Assembly: GCA_905178155.1 (NCBI GenBank)
Contig: CAJINV010000001.1
Location: 5,119,994-5,183,993 of the forward strand
Direction of reading: 5' to 3'
Length of the DNA stretch: 64,000 nt
Source of the DNA: Amoebophrya sp. A120
Taxonomy: Eukaryota; Protista; Dinoflagellata
Within the stretch, counting starts at the first letter, position 1, and each line of letters begins with the position of its first letter. Shown here in pieces: positions 6,701 through 35,500 of the stretch. The translations under genes were made by a program, and so were the position numbers. The notes under the pieces were generated by a model, which was given only the letters and a program-made list of their open reading frames with translations, was not told the origin of the DNA and ran no database searches.

Positions 6701-8280
6701 GGTTGTAGCTGTAGCTCCACCGTCGGATACAAACGACTCGTTCAGTGCGCTGAAATCATCATCGTCGTCGTGCAGCACTAGCGGGTTTTTGCGCTTGTTC
6801 GAGTTCTTTTTCGGCGCTGCGTGCTTCTTATTCTTGCTGCCGCTCGAGGTTTTCTTCGAGCCGGAGTGTGTTTTTGTGGTTTTCATTTGGTCTTGTTCAG
6901 CCAGATGCTGGTGGCGACCACCATAGTTGGCGCTAGCGCTAGAAGACGCTTCTCCGTCCGCACGACAAGGGATTTGCATGAGCAAGCCGAGGAGAAAAAC
7001 CAGCGGCTGCAGATCCGGAAAAGTGGTCGTGGTCTGCAGCGGGTCCAGAATCGTGTGCGACACGATATGCCCCGCTCAAACGTTACAATCTCAAACGTTA
7101 CAATAGAATCTGAGATTTGTCTTGCATGATCAACATGACAGACTCGGACAGCATTCCACTTTCTGCAATACAAATTTCGCCAGATTGTAGTGCGGATTGG
7201 GACTCCAGAACTTGTCATGCGCAATCCTGTGGGAGTAGAGTAGATCATGCACTTCTTGCAACACAAATTCCAGATTCTATTGTAACGTTTGAGATTGTAA
7301 CACCTGAGCAGGTTATACACGAAATCAGAGTCGAAAACCACGGCGAGCTTCTGACGGTCCCGGAAGGAGAGCAAGTCGTTGTCTTTTGTCGTGCCTGCCG
7401 CAGGAGCAGCGTCCTCGTCAAACGAACTCTGCTCATCGGTCGATTGTAACTCTTGTTCCATTGCGGACACACTGGTAGCGTCGTTTTTGTCGACAGCACT
7501 GGAAGTATCGCTCAAAAATCGATGGTTGCCTTTATTGTTCTTTTTCGCCAGTAAAAATGACCCGCCACCAGCTGCTAGCTTCAATTCGTGATCCTTCTTG
7601 CTGAGAAGAGCAGGAACTGCTTTTGCGATGGTTTTGTACACGAGAAGAAACGTGTCCTTGTTCCATTTTATCATGTCAGTGTTCGACGGTGCTGCTGCAT
7701 TTTTACCGTTCTTCTTCAGCTGCATTGCTTCTTCCCTATTGTTCAACCCGACAGCTGCTCCACCGACCATCCACTCGACCGCAGAGCTTTTCAGGTCCTC
7801 CGCTGCAAACGCAGAGAGGACACCAGATGACGACCCGGAAGCTGTGGCGCTCTGTAGTTCATCCTCGCCGAAGGACGAGAGGGTGCTTACGTCGAGGTCG
7901 CCTGGCGCCGAGGCGAGGAAGTCGTCGAGCTCGTCCCTGAACTCCGCGAGTTTCTGCGGCTTCAGTGGCATTTCGAACACCGGTTGCACCGACCGCGGAG
8001 CCAGCTGTTTTTTCGCCACAGGAGCTACGGCAGACGAGGCGGTGGTGGTGGTGGATCTATTCATCTGGAAGGACCGAGAAATAGACGAAGAGGCGTGTTG
8101 TTGCTTTTGTCCGTTATTTTTCGAAGAGGGCATCGACATCTTCATCATTTTCCCCACCACGGGAGGACGACCTTGTTGCAACTTGTTGTAGTTGTTCCCG
8201 GTCTTGGTATTCGTCTTCTCCGAGGCTGCGGGTTTTTTTACCGCCGGAGCCGGCCGGCTCGGGTTGGGTCGTCTCGGCAT
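748..8280 (-). CDS. Large multi-exon HEAT-repeat protein, condensin non-SMC subunit (CAP-D2/D3, Cnd1)-like
   Basis: ORFs 6883-8286, 5720-7063 and 1301-5698 join through the TIR intron 7066-7317 (spliced SDFV|SHTILD) and a putative GT-AG intron 5692-5865. HEAT-like motifs DKVSYVRSRALKLL, RLRDVTCIIRRQALKL and LRRSALLALLKVFLVS recall CAP-D2. ORF 748-1206 as last exon is tentative. Confidence 0.5.
7066..7317. mobile_element. Introner-like TIR intron (family E)
   Basis: TATG...TATA ends; long inverted repeat TTACAATCTCAAACGTTACAATAGAATCTG; perfect flanking direct repeat CACGA; removal restores the frame. Confidence 0.9.
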
Positions 8281-14074: not shown

Positions 14075-16085
14075 TGATCTTCACGTCGCAGGTGGATCGG
14101 TCGTATTTCCGCTGTGAGTCGTCAAACACACCTCCCCCTACCGCTCCCCAGAAACGGATCGTGACGCCGAGAGCGTGCGCCGCCCCCTGTAGTTCGACGT
14201 CGGACGTCCTTGCCGACTTCGGGTGGGCCGTTTCCTTAATGCCGGCCTCCACCTTCGTGCTGAAGGTTTCTTTGTTCATCTGTCCACCCTCCCGGACGTG
14301 GAGCTCATACAGCGCGTCAATGCTGTTGTAGTGCACTGTGTCGCTGGCGCAGATGAGGTACGCCTTCTCAGCATGTGCGGCGCCCCCGGTGGCGGCTGCG
14401 CTTGTGCTGCTGGCCGCGCCGGAAGCGGCAGCTCGATCCGCGGCTGCGCTGGCAACTTTTTCGCTTGCGAAGATTGTTTTCCCCTTCTTCGATAAGCCCG
14501 CCGTCGGAAGTTGCTGGCCGTCGAGGAGGTCGCCTACCGGTTGCGTAGCCACGCCCGGCTTAGCGAGCAGGAGAGGAACATTGTGGTCCTTGCTGCAGGC
14601 AGGCGGCCCCCCCTTGGGGCAGACTCCCGTCCGCTGGTACCCCGTGCACGGTTCCTTCGCGTTCAGCTGGTTGCCCACGCCTGCCGACTTCAGGAACTGC
14701 TGGTTGGTCAGTTTGCGGTAAAGCTGGTCCACGCGGCAACCATGTGCGAGCTTCACCAGTTGCGGCTTGGCTTTCGTGACTTTCTCGATTTCTTGTAACC
14801 ACTCGATTTGCGGCAAGCCGGGCTGTTGGTCGAGGATAGACTTTGCGACGTCCCGAATAGTTTGCTTTTCCGCCTCCGTTGGTTGCGTTTGGCGTTCCGC
14901 TAGGAATTCCGTGATGGTTTTCCCGAAGAGCCGCTTGCAATCGTGGCTGCGGAGGCGGAGCCGCACCCACAGCTGCGACGTTATTTCTTCTGGAGCGACC
15001 CAGGGGTCATACTCATCAAGAAGCTTCTGAAGATCGGCCAGTTCTGGGCGGGCTGTTGCGGCTTTGTTGATGTTGTTGCTTCTGGCACCACTTGATTGCT
15101 GTGAAGATGTCGGCTTGTGCATGGTTACCGTACTTGGTCCTGGTGCGGAGGATGAAGCAGCTGCTGCGCTGCTGGAGGCGACGTTGTTGCCGGGCGCCGT
15201 TTTATCCACCGCCGGCGCGGTATTGGTCGTCTCCGCTCTGCCCGAGTTTGTGCTGCCGGTGTTCTGACCTACGGTCGATCCAGCAGGAGGGCTGGCAGCA
15301 GTTCTTTGGGTGCGTCGAGGGCTGCGTTCTCGCGCAGCCCCTTGAGCCGGTGCATTAGGTTGCCCCTGTCGATTTCTTGGGCGCAGTGCCAACAAGCACT
15401 GCCCGACCGTGTCGCGGAGGATGCCGCGGATCTGGTGTCCTCTAATGTGGAATCTGTTCCACAGCATCTTCTGGACCTGCTTGCTGGTGGTTCTCGTGTT
15501 CAGCAGGTAGGCCTCCCGAATGACCTGCTTTACTTCATTCCTCCCCGGCAGATTGGCATGCGACATCGTCGCATCTTCTGCCTTGGTGTGTTTGTCTGAA
15601 GTGGTGCCGGCTGAGCTTGCCGGCGTTGCGGGAAAGACGGCGTGGCTGTGGTTGGAGCGACTTAGATTGGTGCTGGTGTGTTTGTGAGGTGCAGTCTGTG
15701 TTTGTGTGGCAGGCGCCGTGATAACCGGAGGCGCAGGCATGGGCATCTTGCGACAGCACTGCTCTGTCGCGCCGCAGGTCGGCGTTTGCGTGTAGACAAC
15801 GGTAGACGGCCCCCAGGGCGTGTGCAGGTTGTCTTGCATATTGCGCAGGGCAATGCACTTCTCGAGCGGCACGTTCACAAAACTGTCATGCTGACAGCAC
15901 GAGCTGGCTGTCATCGTTCCAAAATTGATGATCGGCGGCGCTGTTCCCATAGTGCCGACCGTTTTGCACCGCTTGCAGAGGCAGTGCATCCCTTCGCCTA
16001 GGGACTGACGCATGCAGAGAACGGGAGCATTGCAGCCGGACTGCTGCATCGGGAAACAACAGGAGCCGATCATTTTGTAGCGCAA
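13992..16085 (-). CDS. LINE ORF1: Cys-rich N-terminus and CCCH zinc finger
   Basis: 697-aa ORF inside the TSD-bounded element, upstream of and overlapping ORF2; CTGYQRTGVCPKGGPPACSKDH is a CCCH-type finger. Confidence 0.8.
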   Translation of the reverse strand: MRYKMIGSCCFPMQQSGCNAPVLCMRQSLGEGMHCLCKRCKTVGTMGTAPPIINFGTMTASSCCQHDSFVNVPLEKCIALRNMQDNLHTPWGPSTVVYTQTPTCGATEQCCRKMPMPAPPVITAPATQTQTAPHKHTSTNLSRSNHSHAVFPATPASSAGTTSDKHTKAEDATMSHANLPGRNEVKQVIREAYLLNTRTTSKQVQKMLWNRFHIRGHQIRGILRDTVGQCLLALRPRNRQGQPNAPAQGAARERSPRRTQRTAASPPAGSTVGQNTGSTNSGRAETTNTAPAVDKTAPGNNVASSSAAAASSSAPGPSTVTMHKPTSSQQSSGARSNNINKAATARPELADLQKLLDEYDPWVAPEEITSQLWVRLRLRSHDCKRLFGKTITEFLAERQTQPTEAEKQTIRDVAKSILDQQPGLPQIEWLQEIEKVTKAKPQLVKLAHGCRVDQLYRKLTNQQFLKSAGVGNQLNAKEPCTGYQRTGVCPKGGPPACSKDHNVPLLLAKPGVATQPVGDLLDGQQLPTAGLSKKGKTIFASEKVASAAADRAAASGAASSTSAAATGGAAHAEKAYLICASDTVHYNSIDALYELHVREGGQMNKETFSTKVEAGIKETAHPKSARTSDVELQGAAHALGVTIRFWGAVGGGVFDDSQRKYDRSTCDVKIIAPKDRGLLGAAYQILILPNGRLRALL

Positions 16086-18026
16086 TAACCTGACTGCGCT
16101 TAGTTGCTAAGCAAAAGGTAACTTGGTGCAGGCGCTGTCTAGTGAAGCAAGACTTCGCGGCGAAGCCTGTGAAGCGTAGTTATTAGCTGTAGTGATGTTG
16201 AGAGTGTCTAACTCCGTACCTAGTGTGGTCTAGTTTGTCGGTTTAGTTCGCGTCTTTAGGTGTGGTTTGTTGCTAAGTAAATTGCGAGCTGTGACAAGCA
16301 GACGGTGCAGTTTATAGGTGCAGTCTAGAGGTGGTAAAGGCAGAGGTTCAAGTTGGAACTGTAGTGATGAATCGCCGGGATTCTTAACAAAGCCTTACCT
16401 AGTAGTTACCGATTCAGAGGCTTTCTTCAAGTGCGGAAGCGTGTTCCGACTTTATCGCACTCCCTTTAGACCGAACTGTTTACATTGTGTCCTTAACCCG
16501 CCGGTGCTATGATGGTATTTAGCATCTTTAAGGGTAGTAAAGAATGCGGAAACCCATATACAGGTCGGCGGGATTGGGACTCCTAGAGAGCGAGCCGAAT
16601 AGGCGGGAAGGGCGATACCCACCCGACCGCATTGGAGACCGATATCACTGGCCCTCGAGAGTGTGGCACAACCGACAAAGGTGAGACATTAACCCTAATA
16701 CTAGGGTTAATTTTTAAATTTTAATAATTTTAATTTGGGCAGCACCTACACAGGAGTGACAACCGAACTAAATTTGCAAATTTTCCAGCATTCCATGCTG
16801 TTTTTGCCCGACTTCTAGCCGGTTTTGTGACCGAGGTGTGCTCTTCAGGAGCAACAATTGATCTGCGGGAACCGAGACATAGATACTTGAGTTCTTTGAG
16901 ATCGAAACTGACCGATGTGTGCACCGACATTTGTGAAACTCACCAGGAGCGATGGTTCTTGACCACCTAGTTGCGCGATCGATATTTACAAATATCTTTG
17001 AACATTTCCAGGTTCTTGTCACGACTTCCCTTCCCACCAGGGGCGGGCAGTTGCATTTTTATGAAAAAAAGTAAAACGGCAACCGTAAAACTTAAAGTGA
17101 AACTTCTCGCATAGTTGTAGTCCTTTGAAGATACTTATCGATCCGTATCCCAATTAATAAATAGTGTGGCTCAGAAGTCTGACCGTCCGACCCTTTTACG
17201 CATACGCAGCATTAATAATGCTGCTTCGAGCTCCATTGGTATAATACCTCCACCATTGAGTACTAACTTGGTATTCCTCCCAGATCAGGCCGGCACTTGA
17301 CGACAGAGACCACAATCTAGAATAAAAGTTGTTCGCTTCTATTCATATTCTGTTGACCAGAAAAGCGATCGTCTCTCTGGAAAATGAAAATAAAAATGAC
17401 AGCTTCAAAAGCTGAAAATAATAAACGGAAAATAAATTCACGATTGACCACGAAGAGCAGTCTTCACAAAAAGTAGACATCTGCTCATGCTGTTGTCGGT
17501 ATGCCAACGTCAGCGTCAAGTTGTTGAAATTCATATTCAACACGTTTTTGCATAAAAAGCAGCGAAAGTGACCTAAAAGAAGTGCAACCAGAAATATTCT
17601 ATAGATAACATTAACTACAATATGAATATTTATAGTTGGTGAAGGAAAAAATAAAGCTGCATTGTCATAACTGAAACCTGTAGTTAGTACGCTATTCCAC
17701 ATCTCCCAAAATAAAATATAGAAACGAAAAAACACTGATTTGTTCGGATTCTGTGGTCAATAGATAGTATCAAACCTGAGCTCTCAATTGAACTTGTTCA
17801 GTTGTCTTGTGAAAAACAACGCTTGCAACAATCAATGACAATCAGCAGGACCGAAACGTTATCTTTGCTATACACAGTTCGCCTTTTCTTGAGGTTGACG
17901 CAACTGAGGTTAGCTAAAACTTAAACGTTCTTGGAAATACTTACTTTTCGAAAAGTAATTCCACCAGAGCAAGTCGACCTGGCCTGCTTTGACGAGCGAA
18001 AAAGCAGATCCACTCGTCACGACCCC

Positions 18027-21000
18027 TTACAACTCGTCCTGCTTTTCGGACTCCCCCGCAGAGACCGGCGCAGCCGGCGCTTCCGGCGGCGGCAGCGGCG
18101 GGGAAGAAGAGCAGTGCTTGTAGAAGAAGAAAACGTGGCCCATCTTGTTGGAGATCGCGATCACGGCCACCAACAACATGAACAAGGCGACATCGTTCTC
18201 CGGTTCAAAGGTCTTGAACGCCAGGGCATTGAGCTTGCGCAACACGAACTCCCCCGTATTTCCGAAGCACTCGTACGCCGGGACGTCGGAATGGCCAAGG
18301 CACGTGTACCCGGCCGCATTAGCGCCCGCGGGGTACTGGCACTGCTGCAGATCCGCTTGGGCCTGCGTGAACGTGGTGCCATCAACCACCGGGCACGAAA
18401 CCGCGCCCGGAATGCTGCGCTCCGTCCAGGCAAACTCGATGTACATCTGGTTCGCCAAGCCCCACCGGGTCGGCATCGTGTAAGTGAAGAGTTTGAAGGG
18501 GTAGTTGACTTCGTCGATGTTCACCATCAAACCGCTGAACAAGAACGCATTGTACCTGATAGAACGCGCAACGACAGAGAAGGTTGAGGTTTCTATTTTG
18601 ATTTTTTGCATCTTCATTCAAGAAAATCACTAGTATAGCCTTTCACTTTCCATGATGGCATGGACAACGAGCATGATGTTGAGAGGGTATCATATTATTT
18701 ATATAGACAAGTTCTCCACCACAGCACTGCGCGTTCGTTGGGCTTGGGAACAACGATAAAAAGCAGAAACAAGGATAAAAGTAAAACCATCTACCAGGAT
18801 TAAGAAAAATTTCTTTTTTACCAGTAGACGATCATGGCGAGGAGTCCGATGAGGACGTTCATGGACAGAACCGAGGCCATCTGCGCGAAGAACTCGAAGG
18901 AGATGTAGTAGACCCAAACGTTGACGTGGGTGATCTATGCATTGCAAATATGTCTGGGTCTGCAAAGTTGGAACTTGTAATGCTGGTCTTACATGGCATG
19001 GCATGGCATGAGGCTTGCGCCCTCCAGGTACATGGAATGCCAAATGCACCAGGGATCCGCTTTCTGCGGATTCTATGTTTGTAGGGGACACCCGCGACGC
19101 CGCCCTAAGACAGCGAACCCCGATAATAACAAGAGGGCGCAATCCTTGGCGACGACAGAGAAGCCTCCTCTTCTTGCAATGTTGGTTTATCCCTAATTCA
19201 TTCTCTGGCATCTGTGAGCTGATCCAAGTCCGGGCGCAAGTGCCTCGAGTGTTGATTTCCCGGCGCTCGGTTGCGTTCGAGTAGTTGGGGGGGCTACTCT
19301 AAGGGTACAGGGACCTACATTCCTGTGAAATCTGTACTGCAACTGCATGACCAACAAAAGTCGCAGCCTCTCTTGTCGTACAAAAACGCTGTTTCTCATG
19401 CGGAGTGCGTATGAGAAAGCGTTCTGCAAACTTGTCATACTTTCCTGCGTACGGAAGTGTTTTCGTCATCCATCACAAGTTCAAGTTTCCGACCCCAGGC
19501 ATATTTGCATTTGATATGATCAGCACGTTCTCGATGTTCCACCGCATGTTGCCCAGCCAGTAGGTCGGAATCCACAAGACGCACATGGCCAGCACCAGGC
19601 ACATGGGGATGGAGATCAGGGTCATCGCGGTCAAGTACATCCAGGCGGAGTAGAACCCGTTGCGAATCTCGTTCTTGACCAGCTTGAAGCTGAAGTTGTA
19701 GAACACGGTGGCGGCCGCGGCGAACAAAGTCTGCGCACAGAAGATCCACCCCATCAGCCAGGCTTTCATCATGGCGTTCTCCTGGGACCACTCAAAGTGC
19801 CCCGCGTACGCGATGTCAAAGAAGATGGAGGAGCCCATGTACAACATCATCCGTCCGAGATACGGTGTCTATCAAAATGAAAAATCCCCCCTCCCCATAT
19901 CAAAACGGATATTTGTGATGCTGATTTGCGGTCACAAATCATCTTTGTCTTGCATATGGGGTAATAGGAGTCATCTGACGCATTCCAGAGCTAGTCTGTA
20001 ATGCGCTTCGGCTATTGCAAGCCTGCTGTTTGCCATGCGCAATTTCTAGCCTTCTGCATGCCCAGACAGGCTTAGAAAATACCGCCAAGCACTTTCTGCA
20101 AGACAAATCTGATTTGCGTACGCAAATCCAGCATCAGAAACTTCGTTTCGATATGAGGAGGGGGGATTTTGCCTCACAATAGCGTCGGATCGGTCACGCA
20201 GGACACCAGCAGTTCGCGGTAGAACAGCGTTTTGATCAAGCTCGCGCCGGACGGGGGCAGCAGACTGTTCCCCGTAGATTCCGTGGCGGCGCCGGTGGGG
20301 ACCACGGTGGACGTGAACTCGCCGAGCGGGCCGCCGTTGACGGAATCCGTGTGCTTCTTGCTCGCTTTCCAACCGGACAAAATCTTTTCCTGCTGCTCCT
20401 TCGAAGCGAAGTCGCTGTTCACCAAATCCAAGTAGTACTCCGCGGGGTTGGTCAGCGCCGGCACCGTGAATCCGATGGACGAGAAGTGTTGCTGAATCTC
20501 CGGCCGCGGCCCGCAGTAGGCCATCTCGCCAGAAGCCAGGATGGCCACCTCGTCGCACAGGGACCAGATTTCGTAGGAGGGCTGGTGGATGGTGCACACC
20601 ACCACCATGTTCTTCAGTTGTGCGACTTTGCGCAGGTAGTACATCATCAAGTACGCCGACGCGGAGTCGATTCCCGTGGTGGGCTCGTCCAGGAACATGA
20701 TGCGGGGCTCGCGCAGCAGGCCGCACGCGACGCACAGCCGCTTTTTCTGCCCCGCGGTCATGCCGCTGTTCCCGAGGATGCCGCCCGCCTTCTGGTCTTC
20801 GCAGTCCTTTAGACCCATGGCGACCAGCATTTTTTCCACGGCCTCGGGAATTTTGCTTTTGTCCGCCATCACCAGGTTGGCGGTAAACTCCAGGTTCTGG
20901 CGGCAGGTCAGGGTCTGGATCAGCTGGATGTACTGCGGCACGTACACGCAGTCTTGCGCGAGGTCGTTCAAATGCGTCACGGAACGCCCGTTCACGTACA

Positions 21001-24000
21001 GTAAACCCTGCATCTGCAGGTTCCCGGCCAGGTTGAAGGTGACCGCATCCAGCCACGTGGTCTTACCGGCGCCGGACGGCCCCAGCATCGCGCAAACCTG
21101 CCCCCCGGACGCTTTCAGGGAAATGGACTTCACGAGCGGCTTCTCAGACGTGGGTGTGCCGAACATAGGCTTTTTCGCCTTGATCTGCACAGAGAGTTTG
21201 CAGCACTCAAACCGGTTCGGATTTTCCGGCTCGAACGGCTTCAGGTCCATACCTGGGTTTGAACATGATATGGTAAAATTCAAAAAAAGACCTCGTCGCT
21301 GTGTGCAAGCTACAAGCTGCAAGCAGCTGCACAGTGCAGCTGCTTGTTTACTGCGGGCACTGAAACGCCGCTAGCCGCTCTCGTCGAGGACGAGCTTGTG
21401 CTTACTAGTCTGTTTCGAAAACGAAAAGGTAAAGGCGATTGATGACAAATAATAGAACATGAACATCCTATTGCAGGCGCACTATACCCAGGGTCATGGT
21501 GCGCGCGCGCAGCACATCGGAAGCCAGTTTTTCGTCCATGGTTTGCGGCTTCACCGTTTCGCCCTCCGGCTTGATGGCGACCGGATCCGAGGCATTCGGC
21601 GGCAACTCAACCTTTCCACTGCTCCAGCACTCCTTGTAGAATAAAAAGGCGTGGACCACGGTGAAATAGAAAGCAAGTCCGATCAGGACGAGCACGCGAA
21701 TCCCGAGCAGATCATCATCCGTGTCGATCGCCGGATAGTAGGTCTTCAAAGACTTCAACACCTGAATTTATCAGTTTGAAAATGTGACGAGCAGCACGAG
21801 CCGCAGCATATTAAGATTAACCATAACAGCTGTAATGCCATTACTTTGCTGTTCAGCTTGTTTGAAGCTGAACAGCAAAGTAAAAATGGCATTCATCTTG
21901 AAGAACAGCAAAGTAATGGCGGATGAACCCTTCATCTTGATGAAGAAGATCGGCATTTTTGTATCAATATCATACCTCATTTCTACTACCAACAACAAAC
22001 TCACGAGTGCACTTTTTTTATTTCGATTTATTTCGAGATGTATTTATCAAGTACCTGCACGCCGGTGTAACCCCAGCAGTTGAAGTCTTCCTTGCCGCCC
22101 GTGGAAATCGAGTCGGGGCAGGTGAAGCCGGTGGTTTCGCCGGGCAGGTAGATGCAGGTCGGAGACGAAACGCCCGTGGCAGTCGCGCACGGTGCGGCGC
22201 TGCCCCAGGACTCCTCGTGTTCGAAGTCGGAATACAGAAAGATGGCGGTAGCGTGGCGGTGCGGGGACATGTAGGTGAACGCGCGGAAGGGCCAGGGCAC
22301 GTTGTCCGGGTCCAGAAACATGCCACAGAACAGGAAGGAGGCGTACCAGAACTGAATCATGCCGCCCATACCCAGAATCAGCGGGCCGGTCATGGCGCAC
22401 ACGCGGCCGCACGCGTCGAAGACCTGGATCAACAGGAACTGGGTGATCAAGCCCCAGTAGGAGGGTTCCGCGTACCAGCCGCCAAACCAGGGAAAGTAGA
22501 TGGAGCCGTACATGCTGATCGCCGCGAGCAGGAAGTGGATGGGGATGGACAGCACCACGATGGCGAGCAGGTACTCGGCCGTTTTGTAGTACCCGTTGCG
22601 CACCTCCTGCGACACGATCGGGAAGGTGGACTTGAAAAAGTAAACGCACACGATGGAGTAGATGCTGTTCGAGGTCATGATCATGAACAGCGGCCAGATC
22701 TTGCTCATCACGTACTTGTTGTCGTATTGTGAGGAAAAATCCCCCCTCCCCATATCAAATCGAAGTTGCTGGCGCTGTATTTGAGTACACAAATCAGGTT
22801 TGTCTTGCAGAAAGTGCTTGGCGGCATTTTCTGAGCCTGTTTGGGTATGCAGAAGGCTAGCAATTACACATGGCAAACAGGTTTGCAGTAGCCGAAAGCG
22901 CATGACAGATTGGCTTTGGAATGCGCCACATGGCTCCTATTGCCCTATAGGCAAGACAAAGACGATTTGTGACCCCAAATCAGCATTACAAATTTCCATT
23001 TTGATATGGGGAGGGGGGCTTTTTCCTTTTGATATGTCGTGGCCCCTGCCCTCCCACCAGAGGAGAATCATAAACACGTTCGTGACCCACATGATGATCG
23101 GACGCAGCAGGTACAGAACCGGGTCGGTGCGCGCCACGCGCCACTCGCGCGCGAACACCGCCTTCAGCCGGGTGCCGGCGGTGGACTGTTTCTTGCGGGG
23201 AATCAGCTGCAGGGCGCGCTCGTACACGTCCTCGGAAATCATCTGGGTGTCGCGTTTGTGCATGCCGTTGTCGTTCCCATTGTCGTCCGCGGTGGTGGAG
23301 GATCCGGAGTCCGCGTACGTTCCCAGACCGCTCTTGCCCTTGGTCTTCCAGTTTTCCAGCAGGTCCACGACGGAGCAGGCGATTCCCTTCTGCTTCCGCT
23401 TGTCCTGCGGCATGGCCGGGTTCACGAGGTCCAACACAAAGTCCGCCGGGTTCGAGGCGGCCGGGCAGTCGATCTCGGCCGCGCGCTCGAAGTAGGGCAA
23501 CATCTCGCGCCGGGGGCCGGAGAACGCGACCTGCCCCTTGGACAAAACCAAAACGTGGTCCAGCATGCTGAACACGTTGGTCGGCGGCTGCTGCAACGTA
23601 ATCACGACACACAGCCGGAACCTCACCGCCAAGTCGCGCACCACCTTCATCACGTTGTACGCAGCGGCGGAATCCAAACCGGACGTCGGCTCATCGACAT
23701 ACAGAACCTGACAATAATTTCATGATTCGGGATTTCTCGGTCGATGTTGATATTATCCTCAGTCGCCTTTATCGTGCCCATCGAGCGTTATGTTTGTGGG
23801 AAACTGCTTGCACCTGCAGCCTTGTGCTAGTATATACATTCTCTTATCTCATAATTTGTGATTGTAAAAGCGGCACAAGTATAGTACAGCTTAGAAGTAC
23901 ACCACAAGTACCTTCGGTTCGCGCAGCAGCGCCAGCCCGAGCGCTAGACGCTTCTTCTGTCCGCCCGACATACCCTTCAAACCGATGTACCCCCCCACGA

Positions 24001-24758
24001 CGGTGTCCGCACAGGTGGTCAAGCCTAGTAGGTCCATCAACGCATTGACCCGGTCCGTGATCTCCTCCGTCGTGTCATTCGACAGGATGGACGCGGTGTA
24101 TGCCAGTGCACAACTCCCCCTCCCCCTCATTTCTAAATACAAAATCCCAAATCCAGTTCCTGCCTTGCAGCACTCTTTGCATGACAAATTCTGGAAGCCC
24201 AAACAGTACGACAGTCGGCGCATGAACTTGTCATGCCCATGCGCAGGCTCCACGTATCTTCGTGTTTGTCTTGCTGTTCATGCCATACAAATGGGGGGGA
24301 GGGGGAGTTGTGCACTTTCATACGGTGTGCGTGAGCGCCTGGCGGCAGGTCAGGGTGGGGTACTGCGAGTCCACGCAGGGCACGAAGGCGCAGTGGCGAC
24401 TGAAGTCCGAGATGTTTCCCAGCCGCTCGCCGCCGTGCGTGATCTCCGCCTGCAGCAGGTTGCGCGGCATCGCGTCGCCGGTCTTCGCCCCGAACATGCC
24501 GTCCTTCGGGGTTTTCGCACTGAATGTCAGCAGGTCCAGCAGGACCGACTTCCCGGACCCCGAGGGGCCAATCACGCCCAACAGCTCGCCGGGGGCGCAT
24601 TCGAAGCTGACGTTGTTCAGTAGCACCTTGCCCTTCGCGTGGTACTTGCAGGACTGCACCAGCAAGTTCTCGCTGGCGACACCCGCCTTGGTCACCAGCT
24701 TGTCTGCGATCTGGGTGGCCATTTCTTGTTGTTCGGAAGTTGCCGTGGTTTCTGCCAT
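18027..24758 (-). CDS. Full-size ABCG/PDR-type transporter (NBD-TMD-NBD-TMD), 9 exons
   Basis: Walker A GPSGSGKS and GPSGAGKT; signatures MSGGQKKR and MTAGQKKR; Walker B VLYVDEPTSGLDS and MFLDEPTTGIDS. GT-AG introns at 23708-23911, 21762-22054, 21253-21487 and 18556-18821, plus four TIR introns; all junctions are in frame. Confidence 0.93.
18936..19516. mobile_element. Introner-like TIR intron (family A, oversized at 581 bp)
   Basis: TATGCATTGCAAATATGTCTGGGTC ... GACCCCAGGCATATTTGCATTTGATA; perfect direct repeat TGATC; spliced NVLI|THVNVW. Confidence 0.9.
19870..20181. mobile_element. Introner-like TIR intron (family B)
   Basis: TIR core AAAATCCCCCCTCCCCATATC; direct repeat GTGTC/GCGTC; spliced TDPT|PYLGR. 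Confidence 0.9.
22725..23034. mobile_element. Introner-like TIR intron (family B, opposite orientation to 19870-20181)
   Basis: TATTGTGAGGAAAAATCCCCCCTCCCCATATC ... GATATGGGGAGGGGGGCTTTTTCCTTTTGATA; perfect direct repeat TGTCG; spliced GRGHD|NKYVM. Confidence 0.92.
24099..24322. mobile_element. Introner-like TIR intron (family B-related)
   Basis: TIR TATGnnAGTGCACAACTCCCCCTCCCC; perfect direct repeat CGGTG; spliced ALTHT|ASILS. Confidence 0.92.
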
Positions 24759-26279
24759 CGACACCCAAATTTGTAGACAACTTGTCTAAGACAAGAAAGA
24801 AAATCTATCGACAGCGAGGAAGATCTTCCAAAAAAAAAGTAGCCTGTTACTGATTTTTTCAATCAAATAGCCGGTAGAAGTTCTTGTGCCAACTACAGAC
24901 TAAGTGGTCACAAAAACTAAGCTGCACCAGCATACATTTCTCACAACTAACAACATGGACATAGAGTAGACAACAAGAACAAATGGTGAACGTGAACGAT
25001 GGATACTCTTACTCACTTACTTACTCTCGTAGAGAAATAAACTTCGTAAAGAAAGAACCAGGTGGGTCTTCTATCTTGAAACGATTTCGAAATAAAACGT
25101 CAGGGGTTCTCGTCCACCACCACCAGGCAGAACAAATTTAACACTACGATGGAGTCAGTTTCTCTTTACCTTCTTACCGTGATACTTCGACGATTGGGGT
25201 ATTTGTTTCAACCGACCAGAACAATAATTCAGGCTAGAGCTCGGGAGGTGGACGGAAGTAGTCGATAAAAAAGTACCTAGATTTTATCAACTACGACAAG
25301 TTTATTCACTTCTGACGACAATTTGGATTTTCAAGTAAAAATATCAGCTACTCGTGCTGCTGCTTTTTTAGCTTGGTAATTGATTTCTTTCTCTGTCTTA
25401 ATTGCCTCTTTGACTAGTGGGGATTTCGTTTTTGGTTCAGCCGAGTGTCGAAACCTGTCTGTGTGGGGTGAAATCAACGAAAGCTCGAAACAACTACGAC
25501 CTCACTGACGAAACTGGCGTTATTGCACATGCAGACTCTTGCGTGATGAAGACACCACTACTCTTGCAGTGATTTTGGTTTTTTATTCTCACGAAGTGCT
25601 CAAAAACTTGAAGAATAAACCATTCTTTTAGGGTTCGCAGCTATCACTCTCGAGTGCCATTGTCTAGATTTTGATGTTGAAAAAACGAATCAGACAGCAC
25701 CGAGTCTAACTACCGTTTTGCATGATGATAAAACGGCCCTGAGAACAACACAGCGAACGGAGTCAATCTCTGTGCAGGGATTCCGAACGGAGTCAATTTC
25801 TGCACAGGACATGAACTCCGCAATTTTTACATTCGTATTTTACAGGCACAATTTCGCTCCTAGAGAGAAGTGCATCAAGGTCGTTGGCAGATCAATCTCA
25901 ATGTACTAGTTGCTGCTCTTTAATTGCAGCTCTTGGGGCAATTGACTATTGTAAGTGGCCGGCGTCCTCTCCTCAACTGGAATTGGTATCATGAATCTCC
26001 GTCAAGCAACGAAAAAAAAGCGTGAACTTCATGAAAAAGTCATCGTACAGATCGTGTGTCTTCAAACGAACGCCATTTTCACCGATGATTTTCTTTCCTC
26101 TCTAGATGTTGTATCTATCAATTCTAGCCGCGAGAGCAGTCCTGATGAATTCTATCCGCGAGAGTCCTCCCGGTGACGAGGACCCCGGGCAATGCAACTT
26201 TTTTTGAGTTATGACAATTCTCGATTGATGCGCGAAACAACTCGTGAACAGGAGTACAACTCCCTTTTCCGCCTAGAAG

Positions 26280-29200
26280 CTATGCTGCTGCCGACTGTTG
26301 CACTCTGCTGTAGTATTGTTTTTGTAGTCTGTCCAAAAGCTGGCGCTCCTCTTGTAGGCTGAATTTTGTCTCGCTGGCCTCGACCGGCAACTTCTCCGGA
26401 CTGGTGCTAGCTGTTGGTCCTGTAGGCTTCTGGCTCAGTGTTCTCGTCCTCGTCGTCGAGGACCCGCTATTACAACTAGATGCCCCGCGACTTTTAGTGC
26501 CGCGCGTTGTTGGACGGCTCTCGTTCCCCCGCTCGTCGTTGTTATTTGTCAGGTCGATTCGGATCAAGTCGATACCTTGCTGGTGCTTGGCGCCCGTTGT
26601 GGTTGACTTCTTCTTCGCTGAGCTGGAGAGCAGCAGCGCTGGCGCAGGAGCTCCTGCGTCATTATCTTTATTCACATCTCGGAGGTCCAGGTCCTCGTCG
26701 CGAGGACCCGTCACGTCCCTGCTGTCCTCCTGTTCTCTCACTGGGGAGTTCAAGCTACGGACGGAGCGGCGCACCGCTCGGGATGATATGAGCACCTCGG
26801 GTTCGTCGGTTTGGCTGTTGGAGGTGGTTTTCTGCTCCTTTAATATTTTGAAGTCGTCGCGGAGGTGGTCGTCTCTACTCTGTAGAAGTACTGCGCCGCT
26901 GCGACTGGGGTCCGCTTCTAGTGCCGGCGCTGGTTCACTTGTTGTACAACCGGTTCGACTTGTAGTTGCGCCCAGAACGACGTTTTCAATCCACGCGGCT
27001 GCAGCCCGTCCAGGGGAGACGCGAACGTACCGGCGCGTGGATCGCGAACCGCTGCGGCTCCGCGTGCAGTCCGCGCTCGATGTGCGATCGCGGCGGTACT
27101 GGTGCGGGGTCGTGTCCCCGTCATCCAAATCTGATGTCGGTTCCTTCCTCCTGTTCGGTGAGAAGTTGTACTCATGTTCTTTCGTTTTGTTCATGTTCGC
27201 ACGAATTGGAGAACTTTTTCTTGGCTGCCGATCTCGTAGGTCCGCTGCTTGCTCTGTAGTGACTACAGTTGCAGTGACGCCCACGCTCTTCGTTCTTTCG
27301 ACAGATCGTCCTGCAGAAGACGAGTTGTCAGCAGCGTTTGTTCCAGCTACAGAAGTCATCACAGTCATCATCTTTGCAATCAGGCTGGTGACTGTGGGAA
27401 ATTGCTCGTCTAGCAGGACGTCCGTAGGTTGTCCAGTCTCGGAAAACCCGAGGTGGCGGAGAGACAGCGGCAGCGGCGACATCCAGTTGTTTCCTAGTTG
27501 TCGTTATCAAATGTAAAAGTGTCTGGGTCTGGAAGAATGCAAGTTTGTCATGCTTGTCTGGCATGAATCTTAAATCTGCCATGCACGTTACCCAAGAGCT
27601 CCGTTTTTCTGTGATGCAGAAGCGCAGTTTGTCATGCAGAATAGGCAACACCTAGGAGCTCAGAAACTTGTCATGCTGAGCCAGCATTTGCAGCTTCATC
27701 ATGAGACGCCACCCAGCATCACAAGTTCCCAGACCCAGACATTTTTACTTTTGATACCCGTGCGCTTGGCGTGAGGGGGCGACTACTCGAAGGGGTGAGC
27801 GGACGACTAGATGTTGAGGCGGCTCCCGCAGCAGTATCAAGTGTAAAAATGTCTGGGTCTGGAAGAATGCGCGATTTGTCATGCTGCTTTTCCATGACCC
27901 ATGAGGTCTGGAATGCCGGAGCTAGCATGACAGATTCTGCGCGACGTTTCTAATGCCTATCCTGCATGAGAATCTACCTCCTGACTTGGTCAAAATTGGG
28001 CGACTTTTGGTAATCATGCAACACAGATTTTTGCAGGCTGCAGATTTAGCATGACAAGTTGCATTCTTCCAGACCCAGACATTTTTACACTTGATAAGCA
28101 GCGTGCTCCTGCAACGGTTGGAGCTGTATAATCGCCCCAGGGTTGTTGTGGGTGGAGCTCCTGCTTCCCAACTGTGGTAAAGCCGGTGCCGCGGCGGCGG
28201 GTCTTGCAGAGGTACTACTTGTTGTACTACCAGCACCTGCTGAAGAAAAAGCAGCTGGTGACGCGAAGACATCCGCCTGCTTTAGTAGTACTTGGGACGA
28301 TTTTTCATCTTCTCCGCTGTAGTTGTGAGCATCTTGTTTTCGGCCGTTGTTGGTTTCTAGTTCTTCCGTTTGGTTCTGATTTTTACCTTGGTCGTCGAGG
28401 TTCCATTGCTGCTGAACTTGCTCCACAGAGGCAGCTCGTCCTGGCATATAATTACGAACAGTCGACGCCGCTGCAAGGGTCCGATTTTTGTTCTCGCTTC
28501 CGGCCTGATCAGCTCTTTCTTGCACGGACATCAATTCCAGCATCCTCACCCGTTCCGCTAACCGCCGGTTTTCGTCCTCCAGCTTCAGCGCGCGCAACCG
28601 GTAGTCCACGGCCAGGTTCGGCCGCACCTCCGTCTGCAGCACCACCGAGCTGCAGCGCTGGGCGAACCGCAGGGTAGACAGACTCTCCTGCGCGTTTTGG
28701 AGCAACGCGGACATGGTGGCGACCAGGGCCGTCTTGCAGTTGCCGACCAGTGCCTCCTTCAGCAGAAACGTCATCAAGGAGTTGCGGAAGGGAACGAACC
28801 CGCTCTCGTTCTGCATCGCAATCACCACCTGCTCCAAAAAGTGCAGACTCTTGTTGATCGATTTCGCCTCGGTCAATCTGCCGACGTGGTTCACAGCCTG
28901 CTTGTTTTTGCCTTGCGGCTCGCCTGGAAGAAGACCGCCTGGTGCAGACGAGGCCTGCTGCTGCCCGAGCGAACAAGTTTTGTACACCTGGGAGCAAAGT
29001 CATGAACACGATTGTATGTCATCATTATCATTATCATCATCATCATCATTCATCTATCATTAGTGTTTTATCATATTTTGTGTTGTCGTTCTCTGCGCCT
29101 GTACTGCTGCATTCCGTATCCTTACCGATTGAAAGTATGAAGCACAAACAACGACACCAGGAGCACAGTGCGGATATATCAAACTAAAAAATGAGTTGGA

Positions 29201-31363
29201 GAGAACTCTTACCCGCTCACTACCGGCAAGGTCCACCAGGTGTAAGCGCGCCGCTAAATGCGTATCCCCCTCCCACTGTTCTACAAATATGGTGAAAATC
29301 GCGTGCGAGCGGCTGCTATTGCTGTTGGTCTTCGTGTATGCATGGACAAAAAAGTCTCGGCTTTTGCATTTCTTTGCCATCTTACCTTAACATACTATCA
29401 GTGACGCAAATCGATGCACCATTTTTTTCTGTCGCCAGAAGAACGACGAGGCGTCCTATTTCCGCTTCATGACTATGTTGACAATGCTTCATGTATAATG
29501 CTTGTGCAATTCATCCTTGTAAGAAGTGTACTATCTGCACTGCGTTTCTTGGTACAACGAAGATAGATTTCTACTCCTTGTGGCTAAAAAGCCGATTTGT
29601 AGTAAACATCCTTCGCGCTGGATAAGGTGCGCGCGTCGGACCGATTGAGCGCCGCGAGAAAGACGCAATCCAACGCCTCTCGTTCCGATTGGCAAACGTG
29701 CTCCGCCAGATTCGGCTGGGTCTGGAACTATCCTGACCAAAAATGTCCCCACCCCCGAGTCAAGATGGGGAATCTGCTACACAAATCAACCAGCCGAAGC
29801 TTTGGCTGTTGCGCATGACAAGATTGGCCTCGTATTGTGACCCTGTTTAGCTAGTTCGGCACAGCGTCACAGATCTAGCGTATCATAACAATTCGAGCAT
29901 CACAAATCCCAGAACACGAGTAGAAAATGCTTCTCATAGAGCTCCGCATGAGCTACATTTTGAGCATGCAGATTTGCATTACAACTCTGGGGTGTGGGCC
30001 CCGTTTTTACACAGGATAGGAACAAGTCCACTTTCAGCGACGGCGCGGTCCCGGAGTTCGCCTGCGGCTGCAACAGGAGATCGTAGCCTTGGTCGTTGTA
30101 CACTTCGAGGCATTTCACAGAGACCTGATACCGGTAGTAGCTGCCCTCATGGTCCTCCTCGGTTCCCGTACTACAACTTTCGCCGAGGCCGCTGCGCCGC
30201 AACTCCGCTATCCTATGTAAAAACGTCCCCACCCCATAGTGAAGATGGAAAGTCGGCTAGACAAATCCACAAGCTTTGGTTTTTTTGCATGACAAATTTG
30301 GACTGGTATTGTAGTGCTGTTTCAGGTAGTTGCGCAGCATCACAGATCTAGTATATGATGCTCATTGGAGCATGACAAATTCCAAAATACGCCTAGAAAA
30401 TGCTTCTCATGGGGCTCCGCATGAGAAACATTCTCAGCATGCAGATTTGCATTACAACTATGGTGTGGGGACGTTTTTAAATACGATATCCGCGTCCTTT
30501 TCCCGCAGCTTCTGGAACACCCCACAGAGGAACCGCGGGATGAGACCGCGCTCCCGGTACTTACTGCCACCGTAGATCGTATATGTCTTCCCCGTGCCGG
30601 TTTGGCCGTACGCAAAAACGCAACCCGTAATGCCCCGCACCAAGTTGTCCACGAACGGCTCAAACTCGGCGAAAATTTCCTCTTGTTCCGAGTGGGGCGT
30701 GAACACTTGCCCGTTGAACAGCCCCCGGTAGCTGCTGCAGGGTAGCACCGGCTGCTGCGGCTGAAGCTGATGCCCAGTAGAGTGCAGCTGCTCCGCATCG
30801 TGATTATACGCCGAATTATGGGATGAAGAACCCGTTGTAGAATTGCCATTGTAACCTGATGTAGATAACAGCTGTGGTAAAAATTTATTTTACCCGCCAT
30901 GGCGGGCACGCAACTCATCTCACTTGCGACCACCCTCAAGAAGCCTCTTGATTAAGAGGAAGACCAACATGAAAAACACTTTATTGTTCACAACGAGCGT
31001 GAGGCCCTAGCATTGCTTTTTACTTGTGTAGTTCGTTTATTTTCTTGAACCTCGTCTTGTCTTGATTTTTCCTTTCCACAAAGCCAAGGGGTTGATGCTA
31101 ATTGTGAACGGATAAGTTTATGGCTTCTTCTTGATGATCATGATCCTCATCTATAGAGGACATGAACATGATTTTTATGATTGATATGTGGCAATATTAA
31201 ACGGACCCGTAGCTGTACCTTGTTGATGCGGGATTTCGAGGCTGAGCCAGTGCTCGTTCTCAGCGGTGCTCTGGACCTCGATCTGGCAGGTGGCGTCTTC
31301 CGGATCGAAAACAGGGCAGATCCGCGCATAGGTCGCAAGGCGCGCCCCTCCTCCGGGTGACAT
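26280..31363 (-). CDS. Kinesin motor protein, kinesin-9 (KIF6/KIF9)-like, multi-exon; 5' end uncertain
   Basis: [60 protein letters not shown] and STLRFA. Five TIR-type introns, a GT-AG intron at 28988-29212, and an unresolved first intron. Confidence 0.9.
27505..27756. mobile_element. Introner-like TIR intron (family A)
   Basis: TATCAAATGTAAAAGTGTCTGGGTCTGG ... CCAGACCCAGACATTTTTACTTTTGATA; degenerate direct repeat GTCGT/CCCGT; removing the element plus 5 nt joins into the frame of ORF 26280-27482. Confidence 0.88.
27835..28096. mobile_element. Introner-like TIR intron (family A)
   Basis: Perfect TIR TATCAAGTGTAAAAATGTCTGGGTCTGGAAGAATGC; perfect direct repeat AGCAG. Confidence 0.92.
29337..29624. 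mobile_element. Decayed introner-like intron
   Basis: TAT...ATA ends, partial direct repeat TCGTG/AGGTG, little TIR left; removing the element plus 5 nt gives [17 protein letters not shown] (kinesin switch I). Confidence 0.7.
29729..30018. mobile_element. Introner-like TIR intron (family C)
   Basis: TATCCTG...TCCCCACCCC-type TIR; perfect direct repeat GGAAC; spliced VDLF|QTQPNL. Confidence 0.9.
30209..30488. mobile_element. Introner-like TIR intron (family C)
   Basis: TATCCTATGTAAAAACGTCCCCACCCCATAGT ... ACTATGGTGTGGGGACGTTTTTAAATACGATA; perfect direct repeat TCCGC; spliced EKDA|ELRR. Confidence 0.92.
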
Positions 31364-32566
31364 GATGTGAAGATGAAACTACCCCCGATGTCAGAATTCC
31401 CTTGTAGTTCCCAAACGGATTTTGACTCACGCAATACACTTCCCTTTTGGGTGCGGGACCTTTAATATGATCCACGCCTTCTCGAATCGCATCGGTTCGC
31501 CATCGCCTTCGCCGGTTCTCCTTCTCTGACAAAAACGAAAGCAAGGACGACAAGCGGGAACTCCTACACTAATACTTGTATAAACTAGCTTGGCGTGATC
31601 CGCACAGAGTCCGAAACGTGGCCTCAACATCTCTCCGTATGTAATAGAATAAGTGGAAAATAGAATACATGTTGTAGTTGTACTTACTCGTAATCTTTTT
31701 AGTAAATACGCTGCTTATTTTTCTATGTCGTCAACAACCATCTCACTACAATTTTACTCTTTTGCGAGCCTTGTTCGTTTAGCGGTAGCGCTCATCTCAT
31801 GCAGGAAATGGCGCTACGCTGTTTCTCACACTCTACGAACCACGACACCTTTGGGGGTCGGTGCGGCTCCTAGTCGTACACGTTGTACATGTACTCCAGT
31901 GACAACATAAGTACAATTTCTCTTCCAAGTCGCAATCGCGGCAGAACAAAAAGCCGCATTGGCAGTGATCGATGACCGAGAGAACGGCACCGAGAGAACG
32001 GCACTGCATTGCAACACGGCAACCGAGAGAACGGCACCGTGCATCCCTGTCTGACGGCGCAGTTCTTCCTTGAGCAGACTACAAACATTGTTGAAGAAAC
32101 TTCTACTCCTCATCCAACTAGCCAGCAACGCTGCAAAATTGATAAAGCAGTCCGCATCATAGTGCTCGAAACATCATACAGTGAAAGACACTACTTCACA
32201 CTCGCCGCGAGGTGAATATTGGAGTTAGGACTCAACACCAGTCTTCTTCTCAACGAGTTGTTCGGTCAAACGAGCGCGAGAAGAAACTGCACCATTCTCA
32301 TACATCTTTTCGCCTCCTGGAAACGCCGACGCCGAAGAACGATGATGCTAAGATGAGAGTACGTACTTCTTCGCTGGTGTACCATCTACTTCTCATACAA
32401 GAAAGCTTCCCGGATCTTCCTGACGAAACATATTAGCGCTCTGCCTGCATCCTCCACTTCGCGGAAGCGTTTCCTCCTTTTTTGCAATTTCCAGTCCCAA
32501 ATCAGGTGTTGGTAGTTGACCTTGAATGATGGCTGCTCGTCCTCCGCACAGTACAATTGAAGCGCT

Positions 32567-35500
32567 TCAATGTTGATCTCCTTTCATCTCATCGTCTTCG
32601 AGCAGTTGCTGCACGGCGACCCGACCGTTTCCCTTTTTGGTGTACCGAACCAATACAGACTCGCCCCGGTGCGGTTTTCCCGGCCCGGCCACGGCATCCC
32701 CAAGAAAAAAGGAAAAGCAGGCACGATATATTATTTCGAGTGTATGGCAAATAGAATTACTTTTACTTACACAGAAAAATCTGCATTGCATACCCTGAGC
32801 AGCATGCTATGGATTCACCCATGCAGGATTTCCATTTTCTGTGTGTTACTTAGTGTTTATTTCTGCATAGTATGCCTTGCCTGCTTTTTTTCTGTGGGAT
32901 ACACGGTGATGAAGTCGTAGAGCTTCTTCGCGTCCCGCATAAATTCCGCTTCGTCCATCAGCATTCGCACTGGCGCGGTTTGCACCGGCGGCGCTTTGTT
33001 TTTTTCATCCACGAGGTTAATATTTTCGTCGTCGTCCTCCCGCCTAGTGCTGGAGAACGCCGGAGCCACAACGCCAGGTGCCGGTCGTGCTGAAGGCATT
33101 AAGGCTGAGGAACTACGATCCGACTGGGTGAAGACAGGAGTCGGGTGCTGCACCATCTGCAGCCCGAGTAGTTGCGCTTGCATGCCTCCGGGTGGCCCCA
33201 AACCTGTCGGTGACGGGCGGACACCTGCGAATGTTGTACCTCCTGCCAACATCGTGGAGGTGCTACTAACCGTAGAAGCAGATGGCGGGTTCATGGACGG
33301 CGCGGGCGGGAGCCTAGCGAGAGAAGTAGCGGCCTGGGGAGTAGAAGCAGCCGCGCGGCCTGGTGCAGGGTCGTGCACCACCAGCGCTTCACCGCGCTTC
33401 GCCTGCAGGGCCATCTGCCGCTTAGTCAGGGGCGGTGGCGCGCGCGGCGCACCGTAAGGCAGGTCGTCCCCCTCTTCTACCTCATCGTCCAAGTCCCGAG
33501 TGGCCGCGGACCGCTTCCGCCCACTTGCGCGGTTTTTGCCGGGTGGGGGTCCGGAGCCTTTGCTTCGGCCCGCTCCCGCGGTTTCTTCTTTCCGCCGACG
33601 TCGGCCTTGGCGGCGGCCACCCTGAAGTGTTCATGAAAATGTTCGCATCGCGATCGTACCAGATAGAACAAGTAGGAGCATATTCCCTATTTCTTTCGAA
33701 AACTACACGCAGGCAAGTTGCGAAGAACTTTCAGGCACGAGCGCCACTTTTTCTTTTTCTTTCCAGATTCTTCATCTTCATCACCACATTACGCTCCGAA
33801 ATCAATCAGCACGATGCAGCAATATCATGGAACCTACAGTAAAACAAAATTTTGCGATCACAGAAAGAAGCAGCTCGAGATGACCTACTTACATGCTTCG
33901 CGTCCTCCTCGGAGGAAGAGGCAGCCGGACTTGATGACCCCTTCGCGAGGAGCCCTTGGCTGAGCATCCGGATTTCGTCCCCCGTGAGTTCCAGCTCGGT
34001 GTTTTGCTCGTCGAACACCCGCATAGGCCCGGTTTCTGCGTCGCCGGGCTGGGTGCAATCCGTTTCCCGAAGGAAGCTGCAGCTAAATGTACGCCCGGAC
34101 TCCTCCGAGAAAAGCCGTCGCGTGAATGCGTCCACCTTGCGAAGCCTTCCGCACAGTGCGCAGGTGAGAAAGTGCGCTGCGTTCGATTGCGCCGCATCCT
34201 GATGATCGGAGAGGGATTACTATGACCAGCGATTCCACCTTGAACAAACGTTGAATTGCACCCGGATGCACGACCTGCAAAAGATAAAGAAGTAGATGAA
34301 AATGCAGAAGTATACACTTCTGCTTCGCCGTGCTTGCCCTTGCCCGATTCCGATAAGCGGGTCCGCACTCATCGTCGCGTATGCCTTCAGCGCTGCCTGT
34401 CTGGGCTCGTGGGACCGCCGATGCAAGCGCATCCCGCTCGTCCCAGATGGGTCACTCGTTCCAGGAAACGACATTTTCGTTCCAGATGATCAAACCGGGG
34501 GATGTTCACCTTGACATCATAAACGAAGTGAAGACGAAGAGCACCCGCAGTGCAAGTAGTATTGAACCTCCCGCCGAGGAACTTCGCGTTTTTGAAGAAA
34601 GCGCACGTCTCTCCTAGACAAGGAACCTGGATGAAGAAGATCCAGACTCGTTTTTCCATTTAACAGGAAACTCAAACGATATTTACGAACGCAAAATCAC
34701 GAACAACGCTTTTCTTCGTCGAGGTGAGAATTCCCTGGCTTCAGTCCGCCGTCGCCATCTCATCTGTCTCCGCAAATTATGCACACACAAGAAAATTCTC
34801 AGAATACAATGGGTCGGGCTGATATTTTGCTCATTTGTGGTTCGTGCGCCAGGACGATTATTGCCCATCAAGATTGTAGTGTACATAATGAAAGCGCACT
34901 GGGTCGTGGTGTGTAAGCAGGCGGCAAGAAGATGATATCGCCAAAGATCATTTTCGTTTCACGGATAATTGATAACCATAGCAAAGCGTTTCTTGATAGT
35001 TTCGTTTCGTTTTCTTTCATTTTGGTCGTGCATCTAGTTGGATCTATCATAGACGGTTAGGTTACGTTTGGTCGTTTCATTTCTTTCCTCAAGAAAACTC
35101 CAGGCGACGGCTGCGACGTTCCATGACCCCCGCACCATGATCCTGCTAAAAGTTTACAGGTATTTGCGCACGTGCCACATGTCGTCGGGGAGGTGTTCGA
35201 AGAGCGGGCGGAACCTGGGTTCGGATTTGGAGAGGAGCTTGAAGATTTCCAGAACCACCTGCGGGAACTCGTTGTAGTACTTCGCACAATGCTCCACCAG
35301 GTCCACGCACTGCTCGTAGGCCACGGAGGCGGGACTCTCGACCGGCACCCCGATGCGCGCAGACACGAAGAGAAAGTCGGACCCGCCGTCGGGATCGTTC
35401 TTCCGACTCAGGAAGTGCTTCAGGGTGAAGAGCACCTTTTCTGGCATGTCGTGCAGCAGCTTGAACGCCGTGGGAATCACCGAGGCCCCGTACACCTCCT

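Follow-up and report, generated by a model that had tools for sequence, protein, structure and literature searches.

In Amoebophrya sp. A120, introners are described in the available text of Farhat et al. as short repeated non-canonical introns whose inverted repeats start with TAT, continue through seven variable nucleotides and often reach AAA (PMC7789003). They carry direct repeats of 3-5 nt, measure ~240 nt and lie in co-oriented gene blocks, as far as the accessible portions of two articles report (PMC7789003; PMC12130899). The spread of ~30,000 repeated introns without a recognised transposase, and splicing without U1, are stated in the available text as open questions (PMC7789003). In other transposons, short subterminal repeats are bound by transposon proteins, according to the accessible text of papers on Emigrant/Lemi1 (PMC1636448), Herves (PMC3143072) and Spm TnpA (PMC2613891). 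Here we analyse a 64,000-bp window of the A120 genome (contig CAJINV010000001.1, positions 5,119,994 to 5,183,993), in which elements bounded by terminal inverted repeats (TIRs) match A120 introners in their TAT..ATA ends, 5-bp target-site duplications (TSDs) and removal from RNA-type contigs. The interiors of these elements share one short motif across families with different TIR bodies, on both strands and at fixed spacing, and this motif is probably functional.

The window is eukaryotic, with ~51% GC and genes on the minus strand. We counted 20 TIR elements in it, 150-581 bp long and 5,487 bp in total, bounded by inverted repeats, nearly all with a TAT start and 5-bp flanking duplications; one decayed copy came in addition, and the other 58,513 bp formed the outside set. 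RNA evidence spans 18000-37990, and splicing elsewhere was read from open reading frames (ORFs). Four of the 20 elements are skipped together with 5 flanking nt in contigs X3/X5, which are RNA-type by presumed status and in which GT-AG introns are skipped too. In DNA run X1, reads pile up over the elements, a depth that is not a copy number. Read in transcript direction, the intron is 1 nt plus the element plus 4 nt, with one TSD copy restored; this register is fixed by the mismatched TSD at 27505 (27501-27757) and compatible with the junctions at 19870 (19865/19866-20181/20182). Four elements interrupt a single kinesin gene, which has its P-loop just past 30488, switch motifs near 29215-29320 and a Pfam Kinesin match at 28100-28999:

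26283..30889, minus strand: host kinesin gene interrupted by four elements; gene ends approximate
27505..27756: TIR introner, family A; degraded 5-bp TSD (2 mismatches); 27501-27757 removed in an RNA-type contig; motif cores at 27546, 27610, 27630, 27669 (+) and 27716 (-)
27835..28096: TIR introner, family A; perfect 36-bp TIR and perfect 5-bp TSD; removed in RNA-type contigs; motif cores at 27877, 27949 (+) and 27925, 27964, 28018, 28049 (-)
29729..30018: TIR introner, family B; 5-bp TSD; splicing inferred from gene context only; motif copies all on one strand, at 29776, 29813, 29864, 29897, 29976
30209..30488: TIR introner, family B; 5-bp TSD; splicing inferred; six same-strand motif copies at 30256, 30287, 30337, 30370, 30419, 30449, in pairs 31, 33 and 30 bp apart, the outermost 33 bp from the right end

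For replication we used a sample of at least 130 metagenome loci (0.54 Mb) among the matches listed, scanned with one family A end as bait and none of them overlapping the window. Elements were called by their ends and TSD alone, leaving the motif unused, which yielded 333 elements, 16 of them within the window; the same detection on reversed control sequence yielded 1 candidate. After removal of 5 elements longer than 450 bp, the remaining 328 comprised 13 families of at least three copies each and 7 singletons (family letters A-M are the naming of this analysis). Because the bait over-represents family A, families were weighted equally. A second set, of 347 full-length copies, was found without a TAT or TSD filter.

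The motif is concentrated in the elements. The 5,487 bp of elements contain 53 copies of TGTNATGC, against 6 in the 58,513 bp outside, a 94-fold enrichment (binomial p ~1e-49); 200 dinucleotide shuffles of the elements gave a mean of 1.6 and a maximum of 5. AT-rich non-element DNA held 2 matches in 12,081 bp, two RNA-supported GT-AG introns held 0 and 1 sites by position weight matrix (PWM), and a strict outside copy at 21831 lies within a stretch reading as a canonical intron. Outside the window, 962 matches fell in the 76,760 bp of 313 elements versus 2 in 37,151 bp of flanks, or 12.5 versus 0.05 per kb. At least one strict motif was present in 304 of these 313 elements and, with the bait family excluded, in 159 of 167. 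A sequence-only reading of the window had proposed that such a motif is enriched in the elements over other DNA, as is now found both in the window and beyond it. That reading also listed several copies in each of four elements and two in a fifth, and the pattern T[GC]TNATGC, counted on either strand, is present five times in 27505-27756, five times in 30209-30488 and four times in 44241-44442; the two copies listed for 57422-57571 were likewise counted. For 7066-7317, 'several' stands by the relaxed PWM, which gives five copies with TTGC variants needed, but not by the strict pattern, which gives one. The shared motif is real.

Information in the motif is confined to ~12 nt, RYYTGTVWTGCW, with families weighted equally. 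The spacing of same-strand copies peaks at 31-33 bp, with a weighted mean of 31.9 bp, or ~10.6 bp per turn. A same-strand pair 30-33 bp apart is found in 12 of 13 families, which goes beyond the sequence-only reading; the exception, family G, has a convergent pair at 45-49 bp in 11/11 copies, which falls on the same grid (32+15). When one random member was drawn per family, the pair was retained in 8-12 of the 13 families, and layouts randomised and scored in their best 4-nt window reached 10 families in 4/2,000 trials and at least 8 in 143/2,000. A weaker inverted half-site lies 15 bp downstream of 27 of 95 consensus sites versus a 4.6% background. Distances to the terminus are also restricted: 26 of the 32 consensus ends have a first inward site that sits 33-34, 41-45 or 53-57 bp away. 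These steps of about one helical turn give R=0.79 at 10.5 bp over 14 family-level values, with p=1.5e-4, a value that is optimistic because the pattern was noticed before the test and the families share ancestry. Since the variable position is identical in only 8 of 28 pairs, the paired units are not recent duplicates. This fixed spacing, together with the position-specific constraint described below, agrees with the earlier proposal of a common cis-signal on both strands.

Scored as a motif copy, the terminal TIR averages -5 versus a background of ~-13 and is strong in family F only, which weakly supports its being a motif copy itself. The family-specific part of the TIR (positions 11-30) often looks like a tandem pair of ~6 bp, GTCTGG twice in A and TCGTAC twice in F, for example; this part may be a second, family-specific binding site, and we regard it as a candidate.

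The families had been called unrelated, which overstates the case: their TIR bodies differ, but TA ends and a 5-bp TSD are common to all. TAT stands at both ends of 312 of the 347 full-length copies, and in these 312 the 5-bp TSD is perfect in 254 cases, with one mismatch in 40, two in 10 and three or more in 8. TAT followed by seven variable nucleotides and at least three A is present in 9 of 13 families, with other bases in E, G, H and I. When consensus interiors were compared between families after masking of the motif sites and ends, similarity persisted in 6 of 114 pairs, and by eye a stretch of D resembles one of F; the power of this comparison is limited, in that 3 of 6 within-A pairs used as positive controls gave z 9-15 and A1 was linked to none of the other A groups. 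It is probable that the families form one related group, in which the motif and its geometry are what was kept. Among individual copies, L023:5329-5608 is a family B copy with an 8-bp rather than a 5-bp flanking duplication. Among 225 stranded copies, the intron begins with A in 66, versus 39 in the antisense control, and the acceptor less often has TC/CT/TT in the sense orientation; this base bias at the target sites represents a mild filter on tolerated insertions.

When selection acts on the motif is informative about its role. Trees were built for families with at least 8 copies, covering 301 of the 347 copies; 23 copies with an out-of-register TSD and the small families were dropped. On internal branches, the core accumulated 0.0097 substitutions per tip-site versus 0.0423 for the other interior, and on tips 0.033 versus 0.081. 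Core positions thus change ~4 times less than the interior on lineages that left daughters and ~2.4 times less on tips (Fisher p=1e-7). Within the motif, the degenerate position changes as fast as the interior, neighbouring positions are slower, and TIR positions 16-30 behave like cores. Across six sequence classes, the tip rate equals 0.022 plus 1.5 times the internal rate (r=0.98). Because the intercept of 0.022 is about half of 0.040, the rate of TSD mismatches, the core is implied to decay after insertion at 60-96% of neutral, a range that depends on the constraint assumed for the exonic TSD copy. This decay is alike in sense and antisense sites (0.037 vs 0.032, p=0.18) and the same in 5' and 3' halves. 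These data fit a core constraint that acts mostly, perhaps not entirely, on copies that transposed. Separately, the A of the terminal TAT shows 0 tip changes in 438 stranded ends, against 7 and 9 at positions 1 and 3; a post-insertion (splicing) constraint on this base is possible.

We think it probable, by analogy with known transposon ends, that the machinery mobilising the elements binds the motif as duplex DNA along a single face of the helix; a transposase or a helper protein is the candidate, and it may be encoded by the elements or recruited from the host. On this model, the 12-bp site, repeated 4-8 times within short TIR introners in helical phase, would allow several protein subunits to bind one face of the helix, one subunit sitting ~3, 4 or 5 turns inward of the cut end and its neighbour another 3 turns in, often beside a weaker inverted half-site 15 bp downstream. 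The bound subunits would jointly help to pair both element ends. Copies that lose sites would stop making daughters, and the motif would persist as the remaining interior diverges. Excision from RNA would depend chiefly on the paired TIR stem and the ends rather than on the motif. A host role for the motif after insertion, besides transposition, is possible.

It is improbable, more so than any other account considered here, that the motif is a functionless relic, the recognisable remainder of one repeated-unit ancestor from which all families descend. Common descent of the families is itself probable, and the shared TA ends and 5-bp TSD, the 6 similar pairs among 114 and the likeness of D and F by eye would all follow from it. 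As a full account, however, descent of the whole interior, one of the explanations that were to refute the motif claim, meets 108 of 114 masked pairs without other similarity (limited in power, given that A1 is also unlinked to other A groups), core positions that change 4-fold less than adjoining bases within families, first-site shifts in ~10-bp steps and paired units that are not recent duplicates. A host DNA-binding or chromatin protein that reads the phased sites in every copy, for example recruiting unusual splicing machinery co-transcriptionally, with the host maintaining the motif, is unlikely but the strongest competitor. Strand independence and helical phase suit any duplex-DNA binder, a single motif is common to families whose TIR positions 11-30 differ, older copies hint at protected cores, and U1 small nuclear RNA is undetected in these genomes according to the available text of PMC7789003. 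Host selection should, however, act on all copies alike, and the excess of constraint on internal branches, about twice as strong as on tips, together with post-insertion decay at 60-96% of neutral, counts against it. Slightly less likely than this host reading is that one protein, possibly host-derived or domesticated, reads the phased code in all families and does both jobs, mobilising the elements and marking them for RNA removal.

A little less likely again is action in RNA, in which the motif, as a sequence or as part of a double-stranded stem, would be read by a splicing factor for non-canonical introns. The elements are absent from RNA-type contigs and fold strongly (z ~-6.5), predicted pairing is higher in cores (0.74) than elsewhere (0.58) across 60 of the 163 elements, the first sites of both ends lie in register within the stem in several families, and the two inverted halves agree at the degenerate position in 18 of 27 pairs versus 10.5 when shuffled, a weak signal in which some pairs are double-counted. 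Against this, in the 163 elements (of 328) whose gene strand is firm, pre-mRNA sites number 500 sense and 470 antisense (p=0.35), without the strand bias expected of a strand-specific intronic splicing enhancer. Family B is polar, with 5.9 vs 0.4 sites per strand, yet inserts in both orientations (9:12), and 41676 and 42127 are opposite-facing family B copies within one ORF. Only one of the two ends has a first inward site in families B, D and M, and in A1 and C the distances at the two ends are unequal, so that these sites cannot always pair in register in the terminal stem. Three turns of B-form DNA measure 31.5 bp and three of A-form RNA 33; the mean pair spacing of 31.9 is nearer the former. 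Decay is equal in sense and antisense sites and in the two halves. The sequence-only reading had left the choice at a transposase-binding or a splicing-factor site; the lack of strand bias, the insertion of a polar family both ways, the helix-following spacing and the constraint on daughter-leaving lineages favour a DNA-level site for transposition, and the splicing-factor option fits less well.

Several observations weigh against a site for the mobilising machinery. The first-site phase fits 11 bp, as in A-form RNA, equally with 10.5 bp. TIR positions 11-30 are family-specific yet conserved like the motif, so that one shared transposase is not the obvious reading. In the comparison of 51 older copies, with mismatched TSDs, and 250 younger ones, the older copies show an excess change of 0.002 in the core (-0.008 to 0.013) and of 0.013 in the interior (-0.003 to 0.031), the core being lower in 93% of bootstraps; this is a non-significant hint that leans to protection of the core after insertion. 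Indels are only marginally less frequent within the 32-bp pair, at 8.5% against 11.1% of copy-segments (p=0.07 when tested by segment). No DDE or integrase match was returned by Pfam for 146 of 209 long ORFs from the loci, nor any Pfam match for the 5 ORFs of L058:6264-9203. According to the available text of Farhat et al., putative transposases occur only in A25, and general mobilisation by transposase is ruled out (PMC7789003).

The element at L058:6264-9203 is 2,940 bp long, with perfect 30-bp TIRs, a 5-bp TSD and internal short repeats, and is possibly a large non-autonomous derivative. No autonomous element was found among the long TIR-bounded stretches and unpaired ends of the window and loci. 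Viral contigs had 0 matches for the family A end and no transposase for the elements; 23 paired-motif matches in them, none within a TIR element with TSD, were treated as unrelated. Additional sequence of 250-1,100 bp is inserted in four introners that keep both ends and the TSD (18936-19516, L026:5001-5972, L070:1547-2930 and L027:8961-9456). The remaining elements of the window are as follows.

7066..7317: TIR introner, family E; 53 bp between the end and the first inward site; one copy by the strict pattern, five by PWM
18936..19516: family A introner, 581 bp, enlarged by additional interior sequence; RNA-type contigs lack it together with 5 nt
19870..20181: family C introner; RNA-type contigs lack it together with 5 nt
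22725..23034: family C introner, orientation opposite to 19870
24099..24322: family H introner
32696..32902: degraded TIR element, outside the 20; 5-bp TSD, decayed motif copies; ends by eye
36415..36677: TIR introner with motif copies
38087..38339: family A-type introner
41676..41953: family B introner; motifs mostly on the minus strand
42127..42406: family B introner; all motifs on the plus strand; opposite to 41676, with which it shares a minus-strand ORF
44241..44442: family D introner; 4 strict copies
44484..44745: family A introner
45008..45257: family B-group introner
48468..48726: TIR introner; relaxed (TTGC-type) copies only, 0 strict and 8 PWM
48839..49135: family A introner; 6 strict copies
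57105..57334: family A-type introner
57422..57571: family F introner, 150 bp; 2 strict copies, 31 bp apart

Elsewhere in the window, 9770-16106 on the minus strand is an apparently intact retrotransposon resembling a long interspersed nuclear element, in which a 1,437-aa ORF has domains for endonuclease, reverse transcriptase and RNase H, and a second ORF of 704 aa, lying upstream, had no Pfam match. The stretch 35570-36108 is unspanned by the listed unique DNA contigs, and depth is modestly raised near 36079-36106; no TIR or motif was seen in it, and it is possibly a repeat of another type. A-rich direct and inverted repeats with a 12-bp period occupy 61290-61550. RNA run X9, under the same species label, contributed 22 partial reads, all on family A ends (27505; 28041-28096) and none on exons, and perhaps derives from a different lineage with related elements.

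A 12-bp site with fixed spacing and phase would be a ready bait for the protein that copies the elements, and the motif can serve as a signature for autonomous partners or decayed copies. It also enables a genome-wide test of whether the interior serves transposition or splicing. The findings argue that many 'families' are one mobilisation system; if the single-protein account is true, intron birth and non-canonical splicing would be linked in one DNA-level signal.

The elements, being short, non-coding and present in many copies with TIR and TSD, have the features of miniature inverted-repeat transposable elements (MITEs). Their TA ends and 5-bp TSD resemble those of A120 fam38, classed as Ginger-like with a 5-bp TSD and TA/TA termini in the available part of supplement file 8 of PMC12130899. 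TA..TA termini also occur in IS3EU/GingerRoot, which by the accessible text (PMC10045372, PMC6839031) have a TSD of 6 bp rather than the 5 bp found here; a 5-bp TSD is shared with some Ginger2, but Ginger1 and Ginger2 end in TG..CA, as far as the available text states (PMC6839031), versus TAT..ATA here. Nonconventional introns of euglenids are likewise MITE-like and TIR-paired, with non-canonical junctions and TSD-like repeats, and have a conserved signal at the paired ends; the available text on them describes no phased interior motif (PMC11282704). For A120 itself, Farhat et al. describe terminal inverted- and direct-repeat motifs only, a shared interior motif or phasing being unmentioned in the available text, figures S19/S25 aside, and 'CATG' has 0 matches in the text of the supplement (PMC7789003). 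The elements and subterminal binding repeats were already known, and what is new, a description of the motif having not been found in the literature searched (some figures and supplements aside), is one phased motif across families. Like the sites of Emigrant/Lemi1, Herves and Spm, it is a short motif, present in both orientations inside the TIRs and conserved in active lineages, and its binding is proposed by analogy with them. Unlike those sites, one motif here is common to at least 13 families whose TIR bodies differ, is spread over the entire interior and stays in helical phase with the end, and the elements that contain it are themselves spliced as introns.

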